From an uncultured Gammaproteobacteria bacterium (GTDB lineage: Bacteria > Patescibacteriota > Patescibacteriia > CAYYDP01): 27,323 bases of DNA. Below the pieces are notes generated by a model. The model ran no database searches. It saw nothing but the letters and a program-made list of their open reading frames with translations, and had not been told where the DNA came from. This document shows, one piece after another, positions 9,204-27,235 of the stretch; positions within the stretch are counted from its first letter, which is position 1; each line of letters starts with the position of its first letter. The stretch spans positions 1 through 27,323 of the forward strand of contig CAYYDP010000016.1 in NCBI GenBank assembly GCA_964470645.1, given 5' to 3'. Position numbers and translations under genes: made by a program.

Positions 9204-11777
9204 TCACTTTTTTTCAAATATGAAAACACTATTTGATCCAATTTGTTTCACGTCTGCCAGATCAGCAAGCGTTATTTTTGATTGGGGAGAGATTTTCCAG
9301 TAATCATTTAGCACAAGATAGAGTTCATTGATCTCGTAGGTCTCGAAAATTTCATCAATGAGTTTTTGTGATGGCTCTTTGGTCATTTGTAAGTAATACC
9401 TATGCGCTTGAGACGAGATGGGAATGGAGTAGAAAAATTGAGGGTTTAGTGTTGAGGGCTTTGAGTATAGATTAGTTGAGGAGTCATATCTGCGTTGATC
9501 CGCGTTTTTATCCGCGCCTGCCCCGTAGTGTTCCCATACTTGGGATCTACTACCGGGGTTGATCCGCGTTTTGACGTATTGTGAAAATCCAAACTGATCG
9601 AGAGCTGCTGCGCCGACTGATTGGTTGGCAAGGACGAGATATGGCTTTGAAGCCCGTTCTTCGATTTGTTGGACAGTAGCGAGATCGTCTTGTGAAGTGA
9701 GGTATCCTTTAAAATTCACGAACCGGTCAGAGTGGGGGAATTGAAGGTAAATGTTTGAGACAATAAGAACTGAAAGGAAGATGAAAAAAGAAAGATGGAA
9801 AGTTTTTTTTGATCCATGATCCCCGCCTCGACTCGCTCGCTCGTCGGGCGAGGCGGGCATGATCCATGATCCATGATTGAGGAATAACGGCCATAGAAAT
9901 ACAAGCGAGATTGAGAAGAGGCGCGTGAAGAGTTGGATGTGTTCGCCCGCGGTGACATTTGGTTGGAGATAGAATAGCACGATGAGGGATGATGCAAAGA
10001 TTGAGAGGAAGGAAAGAAGATAGGGTATAGGGTATAGGGTATAGGGTATAGTGAAACTTTCACCATTCCCATGTTCTTCTTCGTCATTCCCGCCCCGACG
10101 CTTTGGTCGGGATAAACTCCAGCGGGAATCCAGAAAAGAAAAGATTGAAGTCTTTTTGTTTTGGTTGTTTACTCCGACGCTTCGGCACCGACGTTCCGAC
10201 CCGAAGACGGCGTCGGAATCGGAGTCCCGACCCGAAGACGGCGTCGGGGTTTCTGGATCCTCGATCAAAGCCGAGGATGACGGGTCTGTTGGTTTTTGTG
10301 TTTTTTTAATTTTTTGAACAGTCGCAAACAAGATAACAATGAAAAACAATAGATAGTAGTTCTTACCAAAAAAATGAATAAATGAAAGTGGGTCGGTATA
10401 GCGGATCCAACTTGGGGCAACGATAGATTTGATTGCGCTGTACGCTTCGGGGTTGAGGTTGATCGAAGTTATTGCAAATTGAGAGTCGAGATTATTATTG
10501 AGGATGAGTGCGCCGGGAATTGCAATTGTGGATGCAATGAAAGCAATGATTACAAGGAATAGGAGCATTGCCTGAACAATGAGTCTTCCAAGCGCTACGT
10601 ATTCGTCGCTTTGAAGTTTCGTGATCGTGGTTTGTGAAATTGAATACATGATGTTCCAACCCAAGAAAACGAATGCGGCAATTCCGGGGAAGGGATGGCA
10701 GAGAAAGGAGGCGAGGGCAAGGAGAGAATAACGTATAAAGGTGTAACGAGACCAATTTCCCACTCGGAAACTCGGCTCGCCAAAAGCGACCAGTTTCGTC
10801 TGCTCTGCCTCAGCGATCACTTGATCACTCGCAGGCGAAACCTGCCTCAAACAGTCCTCGTGGGGAAATTGTCTCACTCCTCCTTTCTCTTGCCAAACGA
10901 GCAGAAGCAAAAGGAGGAGGAAAAAGATTCCTAACGATTGTGGTACAGTCGTCGTAAGAATGGAGAACGGGAGAAGAAAGAAGAAGGCGAGAGATTTATT
11001 TCCAAATGTTTTTTTGAGTAGCCACGGGATAGCGAGGATGACGAGAATGGGTAGGAGGAAAAAATTGATCTGTTTCACTCGAAGTTGTGTTAACGTTGAA
11101 ATGACAGACACAAGTCCGTACTCACCCGAGTAAAGTATGGTTTTTGGTTGGATGTGACCCTCTGTGACAATCGTTTGCTCTGCTGCTCGGTGAACGAAAG
11201 GATCGTAGTCGGTTCCGATGGGGAAGAGGACAGGGAGGATGAGAAAGATTAAAGGGAAGATGATACAAGATAGAAGATACAAGACGCTGTTTGATTGTAA
11301 TTTGGTAATCAGGTAATTAGGTAATTGAGTGATTTGGAATCTTTTATCGAGTTTCACTGATGATGGTAGGTACGTAATGAACACAAGAATCAGTACGGCT
11401 GGTAAGAACCAATTGGGAAGAATGGACCAGACCAGGGGGCTGGATGATGTTGTTTGGAAGTGAGAATAGAAAAAGGCGATGATCAGAACTGCAAGAGGGT
11501 ATAGGGTATAGGGTATAGGGTATAGGTATTTTCTGAACTTCCTCCGTGTCATTGCGAGAAGGCTTTGCGACGAAGCAATCTCATTCTGCCGATGACCGGC
11601 ATTTGAGGTCGTCACACTCATTGCTACTTCGCTCGCGATGACAGTTTTTTTAGCTATCAGTGTTAGTATGATTGAAAGTCCAAGTACTAGCCAGGAAGTG
11701 AGCGTGGTTACTTCAAAAAAAACCACAAGAACACTCGAGAGAATCGTCAGTAAGGAAAGAAAACTGATGTATAGCAT
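9204..11777 (-). CDS. large polytopic membrane protein with a C-terminal soluble domain, interrupted in frame by repeat elements
   Basis: A single 857-aa ORF with many hydrophobic helices. Low-complexity, non-membrane-like stretches coincide exactly with the palindromic elements and heptamer arrays listed separately. No family recognised; a GT-C-like or other membrane enzyme is only a guess. Confidence 0.6.
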   Translation of the reverse strand: MLYISFLSLLTILSSVLVVFFEVTTLTSWLVLGLSIILTLIAKKTVIASEVAMSVTTSNAGHRQNEIASSQSLLAMTRRKFRKYLYPIPYTLYPLAVLIIAFFYSHFQTTSSSPLVWSILPNWFLPAVLILVFITYLPSSVKLDKRFQITQLPNYLITKLQSNSVLYLLSCIIFPLIFLILPVLFPIGTDYDPFVHRAAEQTIVTEGHIQPKTILYSGEYGLVSVISTLTQLRVKQINFFLLPILVILAIPWLLKKTFGNKSLAFFFLLPFSILTTTVPQSLGIFFLLLLLLLVWQEKGGVRQFPHEDCLRQVSPASDQVIAEAEQTKLVAFGEPSFRVGNWSRYTFIRYSLLALASFLCHPFPGIAAFVFLGWNIMYSISQTTITKLQSDEYVALGRLIVQAMLLFLVIIAFIASTIAIPGALILNNNLDSQFAITSINLNPEAYSAIKSIVAPSWIRYTDPLSFIHFFGKNYYLLFFIVILFATVQKIKKTQKPTDPSSSALIEDPETPTPSSGRDSDSDAVFGSERRCRSVGVNNQNKKTSIFSFLDSRWSLSRPKRRGGNDEEEHGNGESFTIPYTLYPIPYLLSFLSIFASSLIVLFYLQPNVTAGEHIQLFTRLFSISLVFLWPLFLNHGSWIMPASPDERASRGGDHGSKKTFHLSFFIFLSVLIVSNIYLQFPHSDRFVNFKGYLTSQDDLATVQQIEERASKPYLVLANQSVGAAALDQFGFSQYVKTRINPGSRSQVWEHYGAGADKNADQRRYDSSTNLYSKPSTLNPQFFYSIPISSQAHRYYLQMTKEPSQKLIDEIFETYEINELYLVLNDYWKISPQSKITLADLADVKQIGSNSVFIFEKK
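9811..9877. repeat. GC-rich hairpin flanked by GATCCAT heptamer repeats, inside the CDS
   Basis: A 9-bp stem, cccgcctcg (9822-9830) pairing with cgaggcggg (9849-9857). gatccat units lie at 9811, 9861 and 9868. It encodes SWIMPASPDERASRGGDHGS between two TM segments. Confidence 0.75.
10020..10052. repeat. (GGGTATA)x4 heptanucleotide tandem array inside the CDS
   Basis: Perfect units at 10023, 10030, 10037 and 10044. They encode IPYTLYPIPY on the minus strand. Confidence 0.9.
10083..10281. repeat. composite ~200-bp GTCAT...ATGAC palindromic element inside the CDS, homologous to the intergenic element downstream of clpB
   Basis: 10083-10131 (gtcattcccgc...gcgggaatcc) matches 26676-24. The A-rich/T-rich core resembles 26786-26835. 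10255-10281 (ggatcctcgatcaaagccgaggatgac) matches 26836-62. It also carries a duplicated hairpin, ccgacccgaagacggcgtcgg x2. Confidence 0.8.
11497..11529. repeat. (GGGTATA)x4 heptanucleotide tandem array inside the CDS, second copy
   Basis: Perfect units at 11497, 11504, 11511 and 11518. They encode YLYPIPYTLYP. Confidence 0.9.
11547..11643. repeat. 97-bp TGTCAT...ATGACA palindromic element inside the CDS
   Basis: tgtcattgcgag...cgaagcaat on the left versus attgctacttcgctcgcgatgaca on the right. It encodes TVIASEVAMSVTTSNAGHRQNEIASSQSLLAMT after the first two TM helices. Confidence 0.75.
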
Positions 11778-11827: not shown

Positions 11828-11854
11828 TTGGCACTCTTGACATGAGAGTGCCAA
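11828..11854. promoter_or_regulatory. CIRCE operator (HrcA binding site)
   Basis: TTGGCACTC-N9-GAGTGCCAA is a perfect 9-bp inverted repeat with a 9-nt spacer. It differs from the TTAGCACTC-N9-GAGTGCTAA consensus by one position per arm and lies 17 nt upstream of the hrcA ATG. Confidence 0.85.
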
Positions 11855-13938: not shown

Positions 13939-13961
13939 TAGAAATGAGGGGGATGTGATTT

Positions 13962-14135
13962 AAACCCGAAGCACGAAGTACGAAATACGAAAAAAGAATG
14001 CAAAAATCAAATCTCAAAAGTCAAAATGTAAATGCAAAGTGCAAAATTCTCCATTTTGAATTATCATTTTGATATTTGATGTTTGAATTTTGATATTGAG
14101 TTTGTTTCGAGTTTCGATATTCGAATTTCGGATTT
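13962..14135. repeat. 174-bp heptad-periodic palindrome, copy A (paralog at 17491-17657)
   Basis: Nearly identical to copy B. 5' arm cccgaag cacgaag tacgaaa tacgaaa ... tcaaaag tcaaaat. 3' arm attttga ... gtttgaa ttttgat ... gagtttc gatattc gaatttc. It ends 9 nt before ATG 14145. Confidence 0.9.
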
Positions 14136-14144
14136 TTATCTCTT

Positions 14145-14474
14145 ATGTCCAATGATATTCTTAAGTTGAGCGTTGAATTGATCAAGAAGTGTCCCATGTG
14201 CGGTCAGGCGTGCACCCCGGGCGAGGGTGAAGTGTTGGAGACCTCGGACCAGCATTCTGTCACGTTTTTTCGATGTGACGCTTGTCAGAGCTCGTTTTTG
14301 ATGAATCTGATCCACTACCCATTCGGAGTTATTGGCTCGTTATTATTCACGGACCTGAATTCAAAGGAAATCAGGAAATTTCAGCATTCACCCCTTGTGG
14401 ACGAGGATGATGTACTCGAGATACACACAACTATACATAATCAACAAGTCGAAAGATTATTCATGAAACATTGA
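14145..14474 (+). CDS. hypothetical small zinc-ribbon protein (CPMC...CDAC)
   Basis: 109-aa ORF co-directional in the heat-shock cluster with two CxxC pairs. Its ATG sits at the same offset from the palindrome as the dnaJ ATG does from copy B. No family recognised. Confidence 0.5.
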   Translation: MSNDILKLSVELIKKCPMCGQACTPGEGEVLETSDQHSVTFFRCDACQSSFLMNLIHYPFGVIGSLLFTDLNSKEIRKFQHSPLVDEDDVLEIHTTIHNQQVERLFMKH

Positions 14475-14485
14475 TAAATAAAGGT

Positions 14486-14548
14486 TGTCATGGTGAGCCT
14501 GTCGAACCATTACGTTAATGTAGCCCTTCGACTTAGCTCAGGGTGACA
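14486..14548. repeat. REPIN-like inverted doublet of GTCAY-headed stem-loops directly upstream of dnaK
   Basis: tgtcATGGTgagcctgtcgaACCAT ... CCCTtcgacttagctcAGGGtgaca. Two units sit in inverted orientation with a conserved loop GAGCNTGTCGA and different but self-complementary stems. Confidence 0.8.
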
Positions 14549-14556
14549 GAAGAACT

Positions 14557-16470
14557 ATGTCAAAGATTATTGGAATTGATTTAGGAACCACCAATTCTGC
14601 CATGGCGGCGGTGTTGGGTGGGGAACCCAAGGTCATTGAAAACATTGAAGGTGCACGAACCACACCGTCGGTGGTTGCGTTTACCAAAGCCTCGGAATGG
14701 GTTGTTGGTATTGCCGCAAAGCGGCAAGCGGTCACGAATCCAACCAACACGGTATATTCGGTGAAACGGTTGATCGGACGAAGATTTGATGATCCGGAAG
14801 TTCAGCGGGCAATGAAAACCTTGCCGTATAAGATTGTCCAAAAGGGCGAGGGGGTTGCGGTTGTTCTCGAGGGCAAGGAATATACGCCCCAGGAAATTTC
14901 CGCGAAAGTTTTGCAGAAACTCAAAGCCGACGCGGAAAAGAAACTCGGTGATACCGTAACGGAGGTAGTGATCACGGTTCCAGCGTATTTTGACGACGCG
15001 CAACGAAAAGCAACGAAGGAAGCGGGTGAGATTGCTGGGTTGACGGTAAAGCGCATTTTGAATGAGCCGACGGCTGCCGCCCTCGCGTACGGGTTTGACA
15101 AAAAGAAAGATCAAAAGATAGCCGTGTATGATCTCGGGGGAGGCACCTATGATATTTCCGTACTCGAAGTTTCATCCGATACGGTTGAAGTCCGCGCGAC
15201 AAACGGGGACACGCATCTCGGGGGAGATGATTTTGACCAGCGTGTCATTGACTGGATTTTGGAAGAGTTCAAAAAAGATCAGGGAATCGATCTTTCCAAA
15301 GATCCGTTAGCCCTGCAACGCATCAAAGAGGCCGCGGAAAAAGCGAAGATCGAACTCTCAACGCAGACCGAAGTTGAAATTAACCAGCCCTTTATCTCTT
15401 CTGGCGCGGAAGGTCCAAAGCACTTACTCATGAAGCTGTCCCGGGCAAAACTCGAATCACTCGTTGGCGATTTGGTTGAAAAAACATTGGAGCCCATGAA
15501 GAAGGCGCTTGCTGACGCAAAAATGTCCGTGTCTGACATCCAAGAAGTGGTGATGGTTGGAGGAATGACGAGGATGCCGAAAGTTGTTGAAACCGTTGAG
15601 AAGTTCTTTGGAAAGAAGCCGAATATGTCCGTGAATCCGGACGAGGTTGTCGCGGTGGGAGCCGCGGTTCAAGCGGGTATCTTGCAGGGTGATGTGAAAG
15701 ATGTGTTGCTCCTTGATGTTACTCCGTTAACACTTGGAATTGAAACACTGGGTGGTGTTTCAACGCCCATTATTAACCGCAACACAACAGTTCCAACGGC
15801 AAAGTCTCAAGTCTTCTCAACCGCGGCAGACAACCAGCCTTCGGTTGAAATTCATGTTCTGCAGGGAGAGCGTCCCATGGCAGCAGACAATAAGACGCTT
15901 GGACGGTTTATCTTGGATGGCATTCCACCAGCGCCACGCGGTGTTCCTCAGGTTGAAGTTACGTTTGATATTGATGCAAATGGGATTTTGTCCGTCACGG
16001 CGAAAGACAAAGCAACAAACAAATCCCAAAAGATTACCATTACCGCTTCAACGGGCCTTTCAAAAGACGAGATCGAGCGGATGAAAAAAGAGGCAGAGGC
16101 GCACGCGGAAGATGACAAGAAAAAACGAGAAATGATTGATTTGCGCAATAACGCAGATGCAATGGTATACTCAACAGAGAAAACGTTGAAAGAGGCTGGA
16201 GATAAAGTCCCTGCGGACGTTAAAAAAGATGTTGAGGAAAAGCTGGAGGCAGTGAAGAAGGTGAAAGACGGCGAAGACGCCGCGGGTTTGAAAACGGCGC
16301 TTGACGCGTTGTCGCAAACGATTCAGAAGATTGGATCAGCGATGTATGGGAAGCCCGGGGAACATGGGAGCAAGGGGGAAGGTGAGCAAGGAAATCCAAG
16401 TAACCAGCCGTCTGAGGAAAAAAAAGAAGAAGGAAAGACTGTTGAGGGGGAGTATGAGAAGAAGTCGTAA
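14557..16470 (+). CDS. dnaK: molecular chaperone DnaK (Hsp70)
   Basis: 637 aa with [31 protein letters not shown], a substrate-binding domain and a charged C-terminal tail. Confidence 0.98.
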
Positions 16471-16932: not shown

Positions 16933-17035
16933 TGTCATTGCGAGCGAGTCCTGGAACAGAGTGATAGGATAGGGTCCAGTAATTGTGTGTTGAACTTTGG
17001 ATCCTATCGCTCCCATTGGTTGCTCCAGGATGACA
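16933..17035. repeat. 103-bp TGTCAT...ATGACA palindromic element
   Basis: tgtcattgcgagcgagtcctggaacagagtgataggat ... atcctatcgctcccattggttgctccaggatgaca. Intergenic. Confidence 0.8.
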
Positions 17036-17050
17036 CGAACTAATCTAGAG

Positions 17051-17155
17051 TGTCATGTTGGAACGGAGCGTAGCGGAGTGATAGCATCCAATTTTGTCTC
17101 GTGAGATGTGGATTCCATCCGCTATCGTACTACGTACTCCAGCGTCCAGAATGAC
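17051..17155. repeat. 105-bp TGTCAT...ATGAC palindromic element, diverged tandem neighbour
   Basis: tgtcatgttggaacggagcgtagcggagtgatagcatcca ... tggattccatccgctatcgtactacgtactccagcgtccagaatgac. Confidence 0.75.
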
Positions 17156-17189
17156 TACTTTTAAATTTAGGATGACAGCCAATATTATT

Positions 17190-17492
17190 ATGTCCAACAA
17201 CAATCAACAACAAATTCAAATCCAGGCAAAGCCGGAAGAACTTCAAGGTCATTATTCGAATTTTTTTCAGGTGACGCATTTGAGCCGCGAAGAATTCTTG
17301 CTTGATTTTTTGTTTTTAGACGGTCCGCGCGGTGTGGGAGCGTTATCGAGCAGAGTCATTGTAAGCCCCCAGCAGGCGAAGCGAGTGCTTGCCGCGCTGC
17401 AGGAGAATGTAAAGAATTATGAAGAAAAATTCGGCGCGATTGAAATGGGTCAGAAGCAGGAGGAGAAGGAAGTAGGGTTCAAAATACAATAA
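17190..17492 (+). CDS. DUF3467 family protein
   Basis: MSNNNQQQIQIQAKPEELQGHYSNFFQVTHLSREEFLLDFLF...SRVIVSPQQAKRVLAALQENVKNYEEKFG matches my recollection of the DUF3467 pattern. The track start at 17094 runs into the palindromic element, so ATG 17190 is used. Confidence 0.75.
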   Translation: MSNNNQQQIQIQAKPEELQGHYSNFFQVTHLSREEFLLDFLFLDGPRGVGALSSRVIVSPQQAKRVLAALQENVKNYEEKFGAIEMGQKQEEKEVGFKIQ

Positions 17493-17657
17493 ATCCGAAG
17501 CACGAAGTACGAAATACGAAAAAGAATGCAAATCTCAAATCTCAAAAGTCAAAATGTAAATGCAAAGTGCAAAATTCTCCATTTTGAATTATCATTTTGA
17601 TATTTGATGTTTGAATTTTGATATTGTTTCGAGTTTCGATATTCGAATTTCGGATTT
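17491..17657. repeat. 167-bp heptad-periodic palindrome, copy B (paralog of 13962-14135)
   Basis: It differs from copy A by about 3 substitutions, a 1-nt A-run indel and a 6-nt indel in the 3' arm. It starts on the DUF3467 stop codon and ends 7 nt before the dnaJ ATG. Confidence 0.9.
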
Positions 17658-17664
17658 TATAGTT

Positions 17665-19769: not shown

Positions 19770-19850
19770 CCTCCCCTAACCCCTCCTTCATAAGGAGGGG
19801 ACAGTATAAAATGTTCTCCCCTTACGAAGGGGAGAATGTAAGAGGGGTTA
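19767..19850. repeat. 84-bp structured element, copy 1 (two stem-loops closed by an outer stem)
   Basis: It starts on the TAA stop. SL1 cccctcctt-cat-aaggagggg, SL2 ttctcccctt-acg-aaggggagaa, outer pairing aacccct/aggggtt. It ends 7 nt before ATG 19858. Confidence 0.85.
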
Positions 19851-19857
19851 TGGATTT

Positions 19858-20643
19858 ATGAAACGTTATTTGAGCCTATTTCTGCAACTTGCGAACATGG
19901 CGTTTGGGAGCGCAACGTCTTCGCAACTTGATTTTTGGTCATTTATCATCGGCAAGCTCATTCGGATGGCGATCTGGCTCACGTTGATTTATTCACTCTT
20001 CAATTTTACTGATTCTGTTGCCGGATTTTCCAAAGGACAGATGGTCATGATGTACGCGACCATGAACTTGATTGATGTGGTGGTTCAGGTGTTGTTTTAT
20101 CGAGGGTTTCAGGCACTGCAACACGAGGTGCGAAAAGGGAATTTTGATTTTGTACTCACGAAGCCGGTAAATCCCATCGCGCTTGTTGCCTTTCGATACG
20201 TGGATCTTATGGATATTGTAACCCTACCATTTTCCATTGCAGTGTTGGTCTATGGAATTTCTTTGGTTGGGAGCGTTTCGTTGATGAATGTTGTCTTATA
20301 TGCGCTTCTTGTTATGAATGGGCTTGTTATTATTTTAGGGTTGTGTTTGATTTTCGGAGGTTTGACGTTTTACACCACGCAGATGGAAAATATTTGGTGG
20401 TTCTACCGCTACGGAATGCAGGTAGCTAGGTTTCCGGTTGATATTTATTCTGGGTTTTTTAGATTTTTCTTTACCTATGTCCTACCCATGGCGTTTATCG
20501 TAACCTTTCCTGCGAAAGCGTATTTTGGTGTTCTTTCATTGCCGTTTTATGTGTATTCATTTATTCTTTCAGTGGGTTTGGTGTTGTTCGGAGTTTGGTT
20601 TTGGAACCACGCGGTCGCCAGGTACCAAAGCGCAAGCTCCTAA
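19858..20643 (+). CDS. ABC-2 family transporter permease, second subunit
   Basis: 261 aa with about 6 TM helices and the same architecture as the preceding gene. Confidence 0.8.
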   Translation: MKRYLSLFLQLANMAFGSATSSQLDFWSFIIGKLIRMAIWLTLIYSLFNFTDSVAGFSKGQMVMMYATMNLIDVVVQVLFYRGFQALQHEVRKGNFDFVLTKPVNPIALVAFRYVDLMDIVTLPFSIAVLVYGISLVGSVSLMNVVLYALLVMNGLVIILGLCLIFGGLTFYTTQMENIWWFYRYGMQVARFPVDIYSGFFRFFFTYVLPMAFIVTFPAKAYFGVLSLPFYVYSFILSVGLVLFGVWFWNHAVARYQSASS

Positions 20644-20727
20644 CCTCCCCTAACCCCTCCTTCGTAAGGAGGGGACAGTAGGAAAGAGTGTCTCCCCCTT
20701 ACGAAGGGGGAGATGCAAGAGGGGGTT
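20641..20727. repeat. 87-bp structured element, copy 2
   Basis: taacctcccctaacccctccttcgtaaggagggg...tctcccccttacgaagggggaga...agagggggtt. It again starts exactly on the TAA stop of the permease. Confidence 0.85.
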
Positions 20728-20740
20728 TGTGTTTCGAGTT

Positions 20741-21517
20741 ATGACCAATATTTTCATCATCAACGGTTACGGAGTCCCAAAGGACATCTTCAAAGATGAT
20801 AATTATCATTTTTATTTGAACATGGTATTTAATCAGATTTGGTGGTTCGACAGGGCTCACCATGACAAAAAAGAGAATGTCACCCTGAGCTTGTCGAAGG
20901 GAGGCAATAATGTACTTATCATTTTTAGTGGTGGAAAGACGGATTGTTTTCCTCCATACCGTCGAACGGAAGCGGGGGAGATGAAGAAACTATTTTTGCA
21001 TATCATGAATCGGGATTCAGTGAAAGAAACTACGAAACATTGGACAATCGTTACGCAAACAAAGTCATTGACGACGGTTGAGAATTTGGTGTATGGGAGA
21101 GAACTAATATATTCCCTGAGCGGAGGTTCTGCGAAGTCGAAAGGTCTCCATTATGGAAGCTCTGCGACAAGCTCAGAGAGTATTAATGTTTCTTACTTCT
21201 GCGAGTCTACCCGTTTTGAGCGATCGCACATTTTGAGTAGAAAAGTTTTTCTCAAAGCGTGGAACCCAACCGTGATTCCTATTGATTTTGACGTCTCCCC
21301 ACAACGATATCTGAATGAAGCATTATTGAATGCCCGTGAGAAAAAGGCGCTGGAGTATGAGTTGTGGGCGTTAAAGAGTTCAAAGAATCTGAAAGCGTGG
21401 AGAGAGGTGTATCAGGAACGCATCAAATTCTTACGAAATGCAGGACAAAAGGCGAATCACGAAGCCGTCAAAGAGTGGTTGGAGAAGAGGTTGGTGAGTT
21501 TGCCAATTCCGAAATAA
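20741..21517 (+). CDS. DUF218/YdcF-like protein carrying an in-frame repeat insertion
   Basis: IIFSGGKT...RRTEAGEMKK...TKSLTTVENLVYG resembles the DUF218 motifs (SGG, EA..M, S.nT.eN). The track start at 20729 is GTG, and ATG 20741 is used. Confidence 0.65.
   Translation: MTNIFIINGYGVPKDIFKDDNYHFYLNMVFNQIWWFDRAHHDKKENVTLSLSKGGNNVLIIFSGGKTDCFPPYRRTEAGEMKKLFLHIMNRDSVKETTKHWTIVTQTKSLTTVENLVYGRELIYSLSGGSAKSKGLHYGSSATSSESINVSYFCESTRFERSHILSRKVFLKAWNPTVIPIDFDVSPQRYLNEALLNAREKKALEYELWALKSSKNLKAWREVYQERIKFLRNAGQKANHEAVKEWLEKRLVSLPIPK
20844..20901. repeat. head-to-head pair of GTCAY stem-loop units inside the DUF218 CDS
   Basis: ggttcgacagggctcaccatgaca aaaaagagaa tgtcaccctgagcttgtcgaaggg. These are the same two unit types as upstream of dnaK but with heads facing inward. 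They encode WFDRAHHDKKENVTLSLSKG. Confidence 0.8.
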
Positions 21518-26675: not shown

Positions 26676-26724
26676 GTCATTCCCGCCCCGTATGAAACTA
26701 CGGGGTAAACTGCAACGGGAATCC
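26676..26724. repeat. nested stem-loop unit gtcattcccgc...gcgggaatcc (paralog of 10083-10131)
   Basis: Outer stem attcccg/cgggaat. Inner stem ccccgta/tacgggg, where the paralog has cccgac/gtcggg, which is also self-complementary. Confidence 0.8.
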
Positions 26725-26756
26725 AAACAACATAAATCAAAAAACAAAAAGATATA

Positions 26757-26863
26757 TGTCATCCTGAAGTTTCATTCAGGATCCAGAACAAAAAAAGAAA
26801 AGACTGAATTCTTTTTGTTTTTGTTTTTTATTTCTGGATCCCGTGTCAAAGCACGGGATGACA
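26757..26863. repeat. 107-bp TGTCAT...ATGACA palindromic element
   Basis: gtcatcctgaa-gtttca-ttcaggatcc, an A-rich then T-rich core, then ggatcccgtg-tcaaag-cacgggatgac. The two terminal stem-loops are in inverted orientation. Confidence 0.85.
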
Positions 26864-26884
26864 AATGAAGCATGAAGTATGAAT
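26864..26884. repeat. heptamer array aatgaag catgaag tatgaat
   Basis: Three NATGAAG-type units abut the palindrome end. They are similar in form to the NACGAAG units of 13962/17491. Confidence 0.55.
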
Positions 26885-26945: not shown

Positions 26946-27212
26946 TTGAGTTGCGAAAAATGTGAGAATAACCTCCTTCTCTATCAGAAAGATGGTCCTG
27001 GAATATTAAAGCGTTTGTATCTCGATAGGATTTTATATCCAGAAAAATTGACAAATTTAAAAACAAACCTACTTTGTGAGAAGTGCAAAACAGTTCTGGG
27101 GATACCTATCGTTTATGAGAAAGAACAGCGTCCCGCGTTTCGTCTTTTTGCTGGATCAGTCGAGAAGAAGATAGTAAAAAGTGACAAAAATATAAAGTTT
27201 TCATTTCGGTAG
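26946..27212 (+). CDS. hypothetical small zinc-ribbon protein (CEKC...CEKC)
   Basis: 88-aa ORF with two CxxC pairs and a TTG start. The start is uncertain and no family was recognised. Confidence 0.4.
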   Translation: MSCEKCENNLLLYQKDGPGILKRLYLDRILYPEKLTNLKTNLLCEKCKTVLGIPIVYEKEQRPAFRLFAGSVEKKIVKSDKNIKFSFR

Positions 27213-27235
27213 TCCTTCGACATGCTCAGGATGAC
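27213..27235. repeat. single GTCAT-headed stem-loop unit (minus orientation) between convergent stops
   Basis: The reverse complement is gtcaTCCTgagcatgtcgaAGGA. The loop is the same GAGCNTGTCGA as the units at 14487, 14524, 20844 and 20879, and the stem is different but self-complementary. Confidence 0.75.

Follow-up and report, generated by a model that had tools for sequence, protein, structure and literature searches.

What are the short self-complementary repeats that stand immediately upstream of dnaK in contig CAYYDP010000016.1, and what kind of enzyme do they serve? The window analyzed here is this complete NCBI contig, 27,323 bp long, and counts made on it cover the contig as a whole. 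A first-pass annotation had described five hairpin units with a common head and loop and had likened them to the repetitive extragenic palindromic (REP), BIME, and REPIN elements that are mobilized by RAYT (IS200/IS605-like Y1) transposases. The architectural part of that proposal stands: the units have a short tag that is left unpaired and a palindrome that varies, they form inverted doublets, and they are dispersed and lineage-specific. The enzymatic part does not, because the tag is of an (N)GTC class that has been reported without RAYT genes and because the genes found bracketed by such units all encode GIY-YIG nucleases of ~95 residues. The units belong to the (N)GTC-tagged class that comprises the CGTC-tagged REPs, Neisseria dRS3/NTS, and the SRM hairpins. 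It is thus likely that they are single-stranded DNA (ssDNA) hairpin sites of Ssn-type GIY-YIG nucleases, that the tags-outward doublets are cassettes lacking the gene, and that transcribed spacers and protein loops tolerate copies of them.

The five units, which we call family A, lie where the annotation placed them, and the pattern GTCAYNNNGAGCN{1,5}TCGA recovers exactly these five matches in the window, against 0.00 in 100 shuffles. Each unit consists of a tag (N)GTC, a variable self-complementary stem of 4–5 bp, a loop of the form GAGC(N1–3)GTCGA, and the complementary stem. The head had been read as GTCA(T/C); its GTC is indeed constant, but the A already pairs in the stem, so that the unpaired tag is really (N)GTC. 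The proposed common loop fits three units exactly (GAGCNTGTCGA; at 14487, 20879, and 27235(−)) and is one base too short for the other two (14547(−) and 20866(−)), and the stem that had been given as ATGGT/ACC at 20844–20866 is TGGT/ACCA, 4 bp. The window therefore holds the stems ATGGT, TGGT, CCCT (twice), and TCCT, on loops of 11 nt or, in two units, 12 nt.

The differences among these stems, which the annotation had noted to stay self-complementary, are not chance. In IMG/VR contigs, the two N4 segments of the pattern GTCA-N4-GAGCNTGTCGA-N4 were perfectly complementary in 21 of 127 matches, where 0.5 would be expected (binomial P = 9e-28), and 10 different stems were represented. When the head was left free (CTGAGCNTGTCGAAG), the stem was longer by at least 2 bp in 74 of 139 distinct matches (~9 expected; P = 4e-51), and the heads fell into few types: GTCA, CGTTCG, CCTCAT, CGCTCR, and GCCTGYC. 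These counts come from unselected pattern matches, as choosing true units by their pairing would be circular. From the two scans we conclude that a conserved loop carried on a free self-complementary stem defines a genuine, widespread family, of which GTCA is the head of one sub-family. The evidence for pairing is comparative rather than thermodynamic, because nearest-neighbor folding of single family A hairpins as DNA gives energies of just −1.4 to −2.1 kcal/mol, which shuffles reach as well; the model, we infer, gives no credit to possible tandem G·A pairs within GAG...CGA. Family A is also found on plasmids, with exact copies of TCATGGTGAGCCTGTCGAACCAT in Moraxella osloensis, Phyllobacterium, and Nitratireductor, copies with one mismatch in Comamonas, and weaker partial matches in Hymenobacter and Microcystis. 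No unit of the window had a match at or near threshold in Rfam, the nearest being a resemblance of 26739–26881 to a Wolbachia repeat-derived small RNA model that is well below threshold (25 bits versus a gathering score of 65). Literature searches by family A sequence and peptide strings returned nothing relevant, and a search pairing GIY-YIG with extragenic palindromic repeats found no paper.

A precedent for an enzyme partner is SsnA of Neisseria meningitidis, a 94-residue single-domain GIY-YIG protein (cd10448) whose binding to the hairpin repeat NTS (CGTCATTCCCGCGMAVGCGGGAATCYRG) requires ssDNA and which cuts a few nucleotides upstream, 5′ of the tag (Chenal et al. 2025, Nat Commun 16:2388, PMC11893778; here, the Ssn paper). 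For family A, the lead to a gene came from a plasmid match that overlapped an annotated Sphingomonas GIY-YIG nuclease gene bracketed by family-A-like units. The Sphingomonas-type protein is 34% identical (BLASTP E = 1e-13) to a GIY-YIG protein encoded in a relative of the window (L201, below), and the two represent homologous sister subfamilies, neither of which has a match in NCBIfam. At all five distinct DNA loci that were read (L319, L420, L423/L428, L429, and L430, one of them picked since its protein shows none of the tail signature described next), family A forms the nearest flanks of the Sphingomonas-type gene: a plus-strand unit stands 20–35 nt upstream of the start codon, a minus-strand unit stands at or over the 3′ end, and the tags point outward. 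The loops at these loci are GAGCCTGTCGA or GAGCTTGTCGA and the stems CCCT, TCCT, TGGT, and GGCT, of which the first three also occur in the window; additional family A units often lie outside the bracketing pair.

The overlap of the minus-strand unit with the 3′ end leaves a trace in the proteins. Among the best 120 homologues of each GIY-YIG subfamily, C-terminal tails encoded by family A (PSTGSGRT, VRPEPVEG, ALRLRSGRT, FDRLR, and LRQAQ, as translated from the repeat) occur in 44 of 120 Sphingomonas-type proteins and in 0 of 120 of the cd10448-like set, and in 79 homologues of a DUF218-like protein of the window such peptides occur in two, both of which are the insertions described below. Because of these tails and the five bracketed loci, we regard family A as standing to the Sphingomonas-type subfamily as NTS and SRM stand to SsnA. 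In two Methylobacterium loci (L401 and L403), genes of the same subfamily are flanked by a related hairpin, CCTC-ATCCT-GAGG-[nested hairpin]-CCTCGA-AGGAG, which shows that an inner stem-loop can be accommodated within the GAG...TCGA loop frame, just as at the second insertion site in L201.

The two further families that the annotation had distinguished are present as described and fold as stated: family B (10083–10131 and 26676–26724; GTC-ATTCCCGC…GCGGGAAT-CCA) and family C (10255–10281, 26758–26784, and 26836–26862; GTC-ATCC…GGAT-CCAGAA). In single-strand folding, these hairpins reach −5.6 to −12.9 kcal/mol (z of −1.9 to −3.7), and the window contains 8 GTC-tagged hairpins whose perfect stem spans 7 bp or more, where 2.4 would be expected. 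Across families A, B, and C, every unit has the tag tGTC, cGTC, or aGTC. The loci L201/L202 and L204 are syntenic with window positions 19858–21517, and their DUF218-like proteins are 59–61% identical to that of the window; a search of all fetched loci with the Sphingomonas protein located a small GIY-YIG gene in each. Downstream of the L201 gene comes attctttttgttttgattatttgtttttGGATCC-CCGATCAAAGTCGG-GGATGAC, made up of a T-rich linker and a family C hairpin that are those of window positions 26806–26862 and 10147–10281, with compensatory changes in the inner stem and a conserved loop. In L204 the 3′ end of the gene is followed by a hairpin GTC-ATTGC-GAG...CGAA-GCAAT. The A-rich/T-rich linker between the hairpins of 26758–26862 likewise matches the 3′ flank of the L201 gene. 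Because linker and family C hairpin are shared with L201, the elements 26758–26862 and 10083–10281 look like two cassette ends without the gene.

The same arrangement is common in metagenomes. A scan with the L201 GIY-YIG protein gave 80 loci, 77 of them distinct, with proteins 55–68% identical to it. When a hairpin was counted as a GTC tag on a perfect stem of at least 6 bp within at most 200 nt (background 0.056 per 200 nt per strand), the upstream plus strand had one in 55 of 75 loci and the downstream minus strand in 58 of 76, while 44 of 74 loci had one on each side, tags outward; the typical unit is GTC-ATTCCCGC-GAAG-GCGGGAAT-CCAG. Hairpins flank the gene on both sides, as in the Ssn system, in these 44 loci, in L201, and in the five family A loci, and not in the window. 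These counts, found independently, agree with those of the Ssn paper, where SRM hairpins occur near 71% of Ssn homologues and on both sides in 42% (PMC11893778). The same cassette lies between accD and folC in Sphingopyxis granuli and is also found in a Berkelbacteria genome. The published SRM motif, HGTCWYN(0-2)YYVSBRHN(0-5)WNVSBRGN(0-2)RNCYNB, has a single match in the window, at 26834–26863(−), with 0.15 expected. Families B and C, together with the L201 gene, match the Ssn/SRM system directly.

Several further observations concern the nuclease cassettes. At the left ends of L201–L203, three independent assemblies break off within the GIY-YIG cassette or immediately before it, as expected if the left hairpin is a multi-copy repeat in the relative's genome. 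The ~94-residue GIY-YIG proteins of Patescibacteria, Dehalococcoidales, Omnitrophota, Sphingopyxis, and Rubricoccaceae share 60–70% mutual identity, which is unusually high across phyla and suggests horizontal spread of the cassette. In three candidate-phyla loci (L042 4990–5900, L033 14060–14430, and L017 13900–14260), small GIY-YIG genes either directly adjoin tRNA genes or are placed with a partly duplicated tRNA 5′ half on one side and the complete tRNA gene on the other, and in L042 the hairpins appear to interrupt a tRNA-like sequence. The cassette may therefore have a tRNA-associated variant.

What was observed directly, then, are the sequences, the covariation of the stems, the association of genes with hairpins, and in-frame insertions (below). 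The Ssn reading places these in a simple scheme. The tags-outward doublets that lack a gene (26758–26862 and 10083–10281, and 14487–14547 by analogy) would be gene-less derivatives of nuclease cassettes, singlets and tags-inward pairs would be further fragments or clusters, and family A would be the equivalent hairpin of the sister, Sphingomonas-type subfamily. Copies without an adjoining nuclease gene would be tolerated between the cistrons of the hrcA-grpE-dnaK cluster, at the 3′ ends of genes, and, inserted in frame, within variable loops of two proteins. By extension, family A would be cut by its associated GIY-YIG subfamily, the source genome would encode the cognate enzyme elsewhere, and the nuclease would be what spreads the hairpins. 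We also lean, although by no great degree, toward a more specific proposal, in which family A, possibly closed by tandem G·A pairs, is the recognition hairpin of a distinct Ssn-like branch of ssDNA nucleases, the Sphingomonas type, with specificity in the conserved loop and a free stem, the reverse of SsnA and NTS. As part of the same proposal, the pair may span Proteobacteria, Chloroflexi-like genomes, Patescibacteria, and phage contigs, with gene-less copies colonizing coding regions in frame.

A number of points weigh against this scheme, most of them concerning family A. No GIY-YIG gene is found in the window. The head beside Sphingomonas-type genes is CGTTCG rather than GTCA. The SRM motif is matched by no family A unit, nor by the B/C units other than the one given above. 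The family A stem is only 4–5 bp and its loop of 11–12 nt is conserved, whereas the loop is dispensable for SsnA. The GIY-YIG homologues at the candidate-phyla loci (L201, L204, L042, L033, and L017) have no canonical family A at their flanks. In 63 viral contigs the neighbors of family A are phage structural genes only, with no nuclease among them, and a search of the viral contigs with the Sphingomonas-type protein gave no match. In several Sphingomonas species (L420, L423, L428, and L402), the Sphingomonas-type gene and its family A hairpins occupy the rnc-era intergenic position, and this fixed position suggests a domesticated gene more than an active mobile one; the gene is found elsewhere in L319 (between nrdR and a methyltransferase gene) and in L429 (between a methylmalonyl-CoA mutase gene and meaB). 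Finally, Ssn enzymes are not known to copy or move hairpins.

These points invite other explanations. It is conceivable that a RAYT transposase encoded elsewhere in the genome mobilizes the units in trans, as for REPs and REPINs. The general architecture of short tag, palindrome, and inverted doublets fits such a mechanism; YTAC follows three of the five family A units, which on the other strand reads GTAR and resembles the GTAG tag; and as RNA the doublet 14487–14547 can fold into a long REPIN-like hairpin (−23.6 kcal/mol, z = −2.06). Yet the conserved tag is GTC, on the side opposite the possible GTAR, and a GT(A/G)G tag 5′ of the palindrome is seen in none of the units, all of which have (N)GTC. 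The two units of a doublet carry different stems, each pairing within itself rather than with its partner. CGTC-tagged REPs are reported not to flank RAYT genes (PMC3733652), a GIY-YIG nuclease is what every gene found bracketed by units encodes, and no Y1 open reading frame was found beside the units in the loci read or, as the annotation had noted of transposases generally, in the window, where a search of open reading frames across all 27,323 bp found neither Y1 nor GIY-YIG. We therefore consider RAYT mobilization very unlikely. A different thought is that the doublet before dnaK serves the heat-shock operon as a conserved cis-regulatory element, acting either in RNA as a thermometer or attenuator or as an operator for a protein. 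Its end lies 9 nt ahead of the dnaK start, it would be transcribed within the hrcA-grpE-hsp20-dnaK cluster, and the folding of its RNA (the same z = −2.06) would be in keeping with such a role. But the doublet is absent upstream of dnaK in 18 of the 18 closest relatives examined, family A is nearly absent from 80 dnaK neighborhoods (1.4 Mb), units of this kind are also found at unrelated positions and within coding sequence, and the CIRCE element of the operon is a different sequence at 11828–11854; there is also no Rfam family match. A regulator of this kind is hardly credible, and because the doublet is absent in relatives we reject it. Hammerhead or other ribozymes, CIRCE, integron attC sites, and tRNA-like elements were dropped as identities for the units because the consensus does not match, CIRCE being present elsewhere (11828–11854).

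The remaining alternative is closer to the favored reading, from which it differs only in who moves whom. Family A could be a set of independent REP-like hairpins, spread by some other process, into whose pre-existing doublets a small nuclease gene homes. GIY-YIG enzymes are classic homing endonucleases, and the gene sits between hairpins that are also abundant without it. Doublets of both kinds exist, 7 tags-inward and 5 tags-outward in the viral sample, and no mobilizing gene stands beside the copies in phage contigs. Against homing, the pairing is specific to one subfamily (44/120 versus 0/120) and Ssn enzymes specifically bind and cut their cognate hairpins (PMC11893778), both of which point to a co-evolving enzyme–site pair. 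We regard homing into hairpins spread by another process as unlikely, but as the main rival of the favored reading.

Some of the hairpins interrupt protein genes in frame. The DUF218-like gene 20729–21517 has an N-terminus conserved in 78 homologues and carries two insertions. At the first site, the family A doublet 20844–20901, a tags-inward pair (20844–20866(−) with 20879–20901(+)) that encodes ...FDRAHHDKKENVTLSLSKG..., lengthens a variable loop; at the second stands a decayed doublet, 21114–21178. L201 shares the second site, where its plus-strand unit bears a nested hairpin, and has a different palindromic repeat at the first; neither L204 nor any more distant homologue has the second insertion. 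The other affected gene, the 857-residue membrane-protein open reading frame 9204–11777(−), is a single gene, since 932 homologues, typically of 610–730 residues, match both its halves. The composite cassette 10083–10281 and an AGGGTAT repeat form an in-frame insertion in it that is missing from a 58–61% identical orthologue, which carries an SRM-encoded insertion of its own (LDSRFHGND) at another site. Insertions absent from orthologues thus occur at three sites in two genes. The AGGGTAT heptamer is repeated four times in tandem, identically, at 10022–10051 and 11496–11525, in frame and encoding IPYTLYPIPY, with weaker copies at 9441, 10008, and 12577. The same gene contains a palindrome without a GTC tag, CCCGCCTCG...CGAGGCGGG at 9817–9875, with GGATCATG repeats on its flanks, which is in frame and encodes ...ASPDERASRGGDHG....

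Table 1. GTC-tagged hairpin units and cassettes in the 27,323-bp window
Feature	Position	Strand	Description
Family A unit	14487..14510	+	Tag (t)GTC, stem ATGGT/ACCAT, loop GAGCCTGTCGA
Family A unit	14524..14547	-	Tag (t)GTC, stem CCCT/AGGG, loop GAGCTAAGTCGA
Family A unit	20844..20866	-	Stem TGGT/ACCA, loop GAGCCCTGTCGA; in frame within DUF218-like gene 20729-21517 (insertion site 1)
Family A unit	20879..20901	+	Stem CCCT/AGGG, loop GAGCTTGTCGA; in frame within DUF218-like gene
Decayed family A unit	21114..21144	+	CCCT GAGC...GTCGA AAGG, expanded loop; in frame, DUF218-like gene insertion site 2; common to relative L201
Decayed family A unit	21160..21178	-	Stem CTCT/AGAG, loop GAGCTTGTCGC, without GTCA head; partner of 21114-21144
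Family A singlet	27213..27235	-	Tag (c)GTC, stem TCCT/AGGA, loop GAGCATGTCGA
Family B unit	26676..26724	+	GTC-ATTCCCG...CGGGAAT-CCA; nested hairpin in loop
Gene-less cassette (putative)	26758..26862	.	Family C hairpins 26758-26784(+) and 26836-26862(-), tags outward; 105 bp
Composite cassette	10083..10281	.	Family B 10083-10131(+), linker of the 26758-26862 type, 31-nt tandem duplication, family C 10255-10281(-)
Family-C-like unit	16999..17034	-	GTC-ATCCT...AGGAT-CC; missed by the first-pass annotation
Fourth GTC-tagged type	19781..19802	-	GTC-CCCTCCTT-ATG-AAGGAGGG; downstream of ABC-2 permease gene
Fourth-type tags-inward doublet	20655..20711	.	20655-20676(-) and 20690-20711(+); downstream of second ABC-2 permease gene

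Besides 16999–17034(−), the units that had been overlooked are 19781–19802(−), 20655–20676(−), 20690–20711(+), and the decayed family A doublet 21114–21144(+)/21160–21178(−). The family-C-like unit sits in a cluster of decayed GTC-tagged units (~16934–17177) upstream of a DUF3467 gene, and the family A singlet lies between a small zinc-ribbon-like open reading frame (26946–27212) and a minus-strand gene that runs off the contig. Tags are outside at 14487–14547, 26758–26862, and 10083–10281 and inside at 20844–20901 and 20655–20711.

The contig comes from a Patescibacteria-like genome, its DnaK being 73–76% identical to those of Parcubacteria, Moraniibacteria, and Magasanikbacteria metagenome-assembled genomes. 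The heat-shock cluster comprises hrcA (11872), grpE (12677), hsp20 (13474), a small open reading frame (14145), dnaK (14557), and dnaJ (~17665), and the other genes include clpB (24100), two-component genes, ABC-2 permeases, and a Mur ligase. Just upstream of hrcA, at 11828–11854, is the only CIRCE-like inverted repeat of the window, TTGGCACTC-N9-GAGTGCCAA, with 2 mismatches to the consensus and 0 expected by chance. A single operator of this kind fits one HrcA-controlled hrcA-grpE-...-dnaK unit, and the tags-outward doublet of 14487–14510(+) and 14524–14547(−), with its 13-nt spacer, probably lies inside the operon transcript, ending 9 nt before the dnaK ATG at 14557. A block of ~170 bp of AT-rich, low-complexity intergenic sequence is present twice, at 13961–14136 and 17490–17658 (108 nt at 98% identity), one copy upstream of the small open reading frame at 14145 and the other upstream of dnaJ. 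Because the listed start of dnaJ (17611) falls within this repeat, its true start is probably MAKDYY at ~17665.

If the family A pair is functional, it would offer a new and differently organized specificity, with a conserved loop and a free stem, for the ssDNA-cutting tools proposed in the Ssn paper. In many genome annotations, the peptides PELVEG, SLSKG, PSTSSG, and FDKLR recur, presumably as spurious translations of a repeat, and a functional family A pair would also explain the repeat that gives rise to them. The presence of such elements in a small Patescibacteria-like genome, in frame within proteins, bears on gene calling as well as on the tolerance of selfish DNA by streamlined genomes.

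How, finally, does the system compare with those already known? Di Nocera, De Gregorio and Rocco (2013, BMC Genomics 14:522, PMC3733652) sorted REPs into GTAG-tagged and CGTC-tagged superfamilies. In the latter, the tag is CGTC, TGTC, or CCTC, the stems are of 8–9 bp and start with AT, the loops are of 4–5 nt, and a CCA tail follows; most are dimers with the tags outside, and sub-families differ by compensatory stem changes. They include Neisseria dRS3 and Rickettsia RPE-4 and RPE-6, with frequent intragenic copies in Rickettsia, and they were not associated with RAYT genes; the survey named no partner enzyme (PMC3733652). Families B and C resemble these repeats in their CGTC/TGTC tag, AT stem start, CCA tail, and tags-outside dimers, but their stems are of 7–8 bp and their loops of 6–8 nt, or long and structured, rather than 4–5 nt. 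In family A the tag and the A(T) start are alike, but the stems are of 4–5 bp, the loops are of 11–12 nt, and there is no CCA tail. Both CGTC-tagged REPs and the window units show compensatory stem changes among sub-families, have in-frame intragenic copies, and lack RAYT association.

The Ssn system supplies an enzyme. Ssn recognizes the hairpin through its sequence as well as its structure. Cutting is governed by the GTC that precedes the palindrome and binding by the C that follows it; the loop is not needed, and neither RNA nor double-stranded DNA is a substrate (PMC11893778). The ssDNA nuclease activity was measured for four cd10448 enzymes. The NTS-ssnA-NTS unit, with inverted hairpins and tags outward, is insertion sequence-like, and those authors drew on the RAYT/REP parallel to hypothesize domestication; they found that the Neisseria system limits transformation when the incoming DNA carries NTS, that NTS is rarely intragenic (2% in N. 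meningitidis); the main text of the Ssn paper makes no mention of Patescibacteria (PMC11893778). The window is alike in that the (N)GTC tag immediately precedes a palindrome with A(T) at its start and C after it, and in its many gene-less copies. It differs in having no ssn gene, and the partner of family A belongs to the sister GIY-YIG subfamily.

The REP/BIME/REPIN–RAYT pairs offer a parallel of logic: their short tagged palindromes come as clusters and inverted doublets, one small nuclease gene carries copies of its repeat on both flanks (the REPtron logic), and the hairpins are recognized in single-stranded form. They differ in that here the tag is GTC rather than GTAG, the enzyme has a GIY-YIG rather than an HUH/Y1 fold, and paired units differ in their stems. 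The correction to the first-pass annotation is one of likely partner: for (N)GTC-tagged hairpins the associated gene encodes a tiny GIY-YIG ssDNA nuclease, not a RAYT transposase, and the puzzle posed in 2013 by CGTC-tagged REPs "without a transposase" is joined to the Ssn discovery of 2025. Rickettsia RPEs are also palindromic repeats that lie in frame in variable regions of proteins, as at the three sites in two genes here, with independent insertions in orthologues; their unit sequences are different, and the host here is Patescibacteria-like. The kind of system is thus already known from the 2013 and 2025 work. What is new is the family A variant tied to a sister nuclease subfamily and its setting, a Patescibacteria-like genome with in-frame insertions that mirror those of the Rickettsia RPEs.

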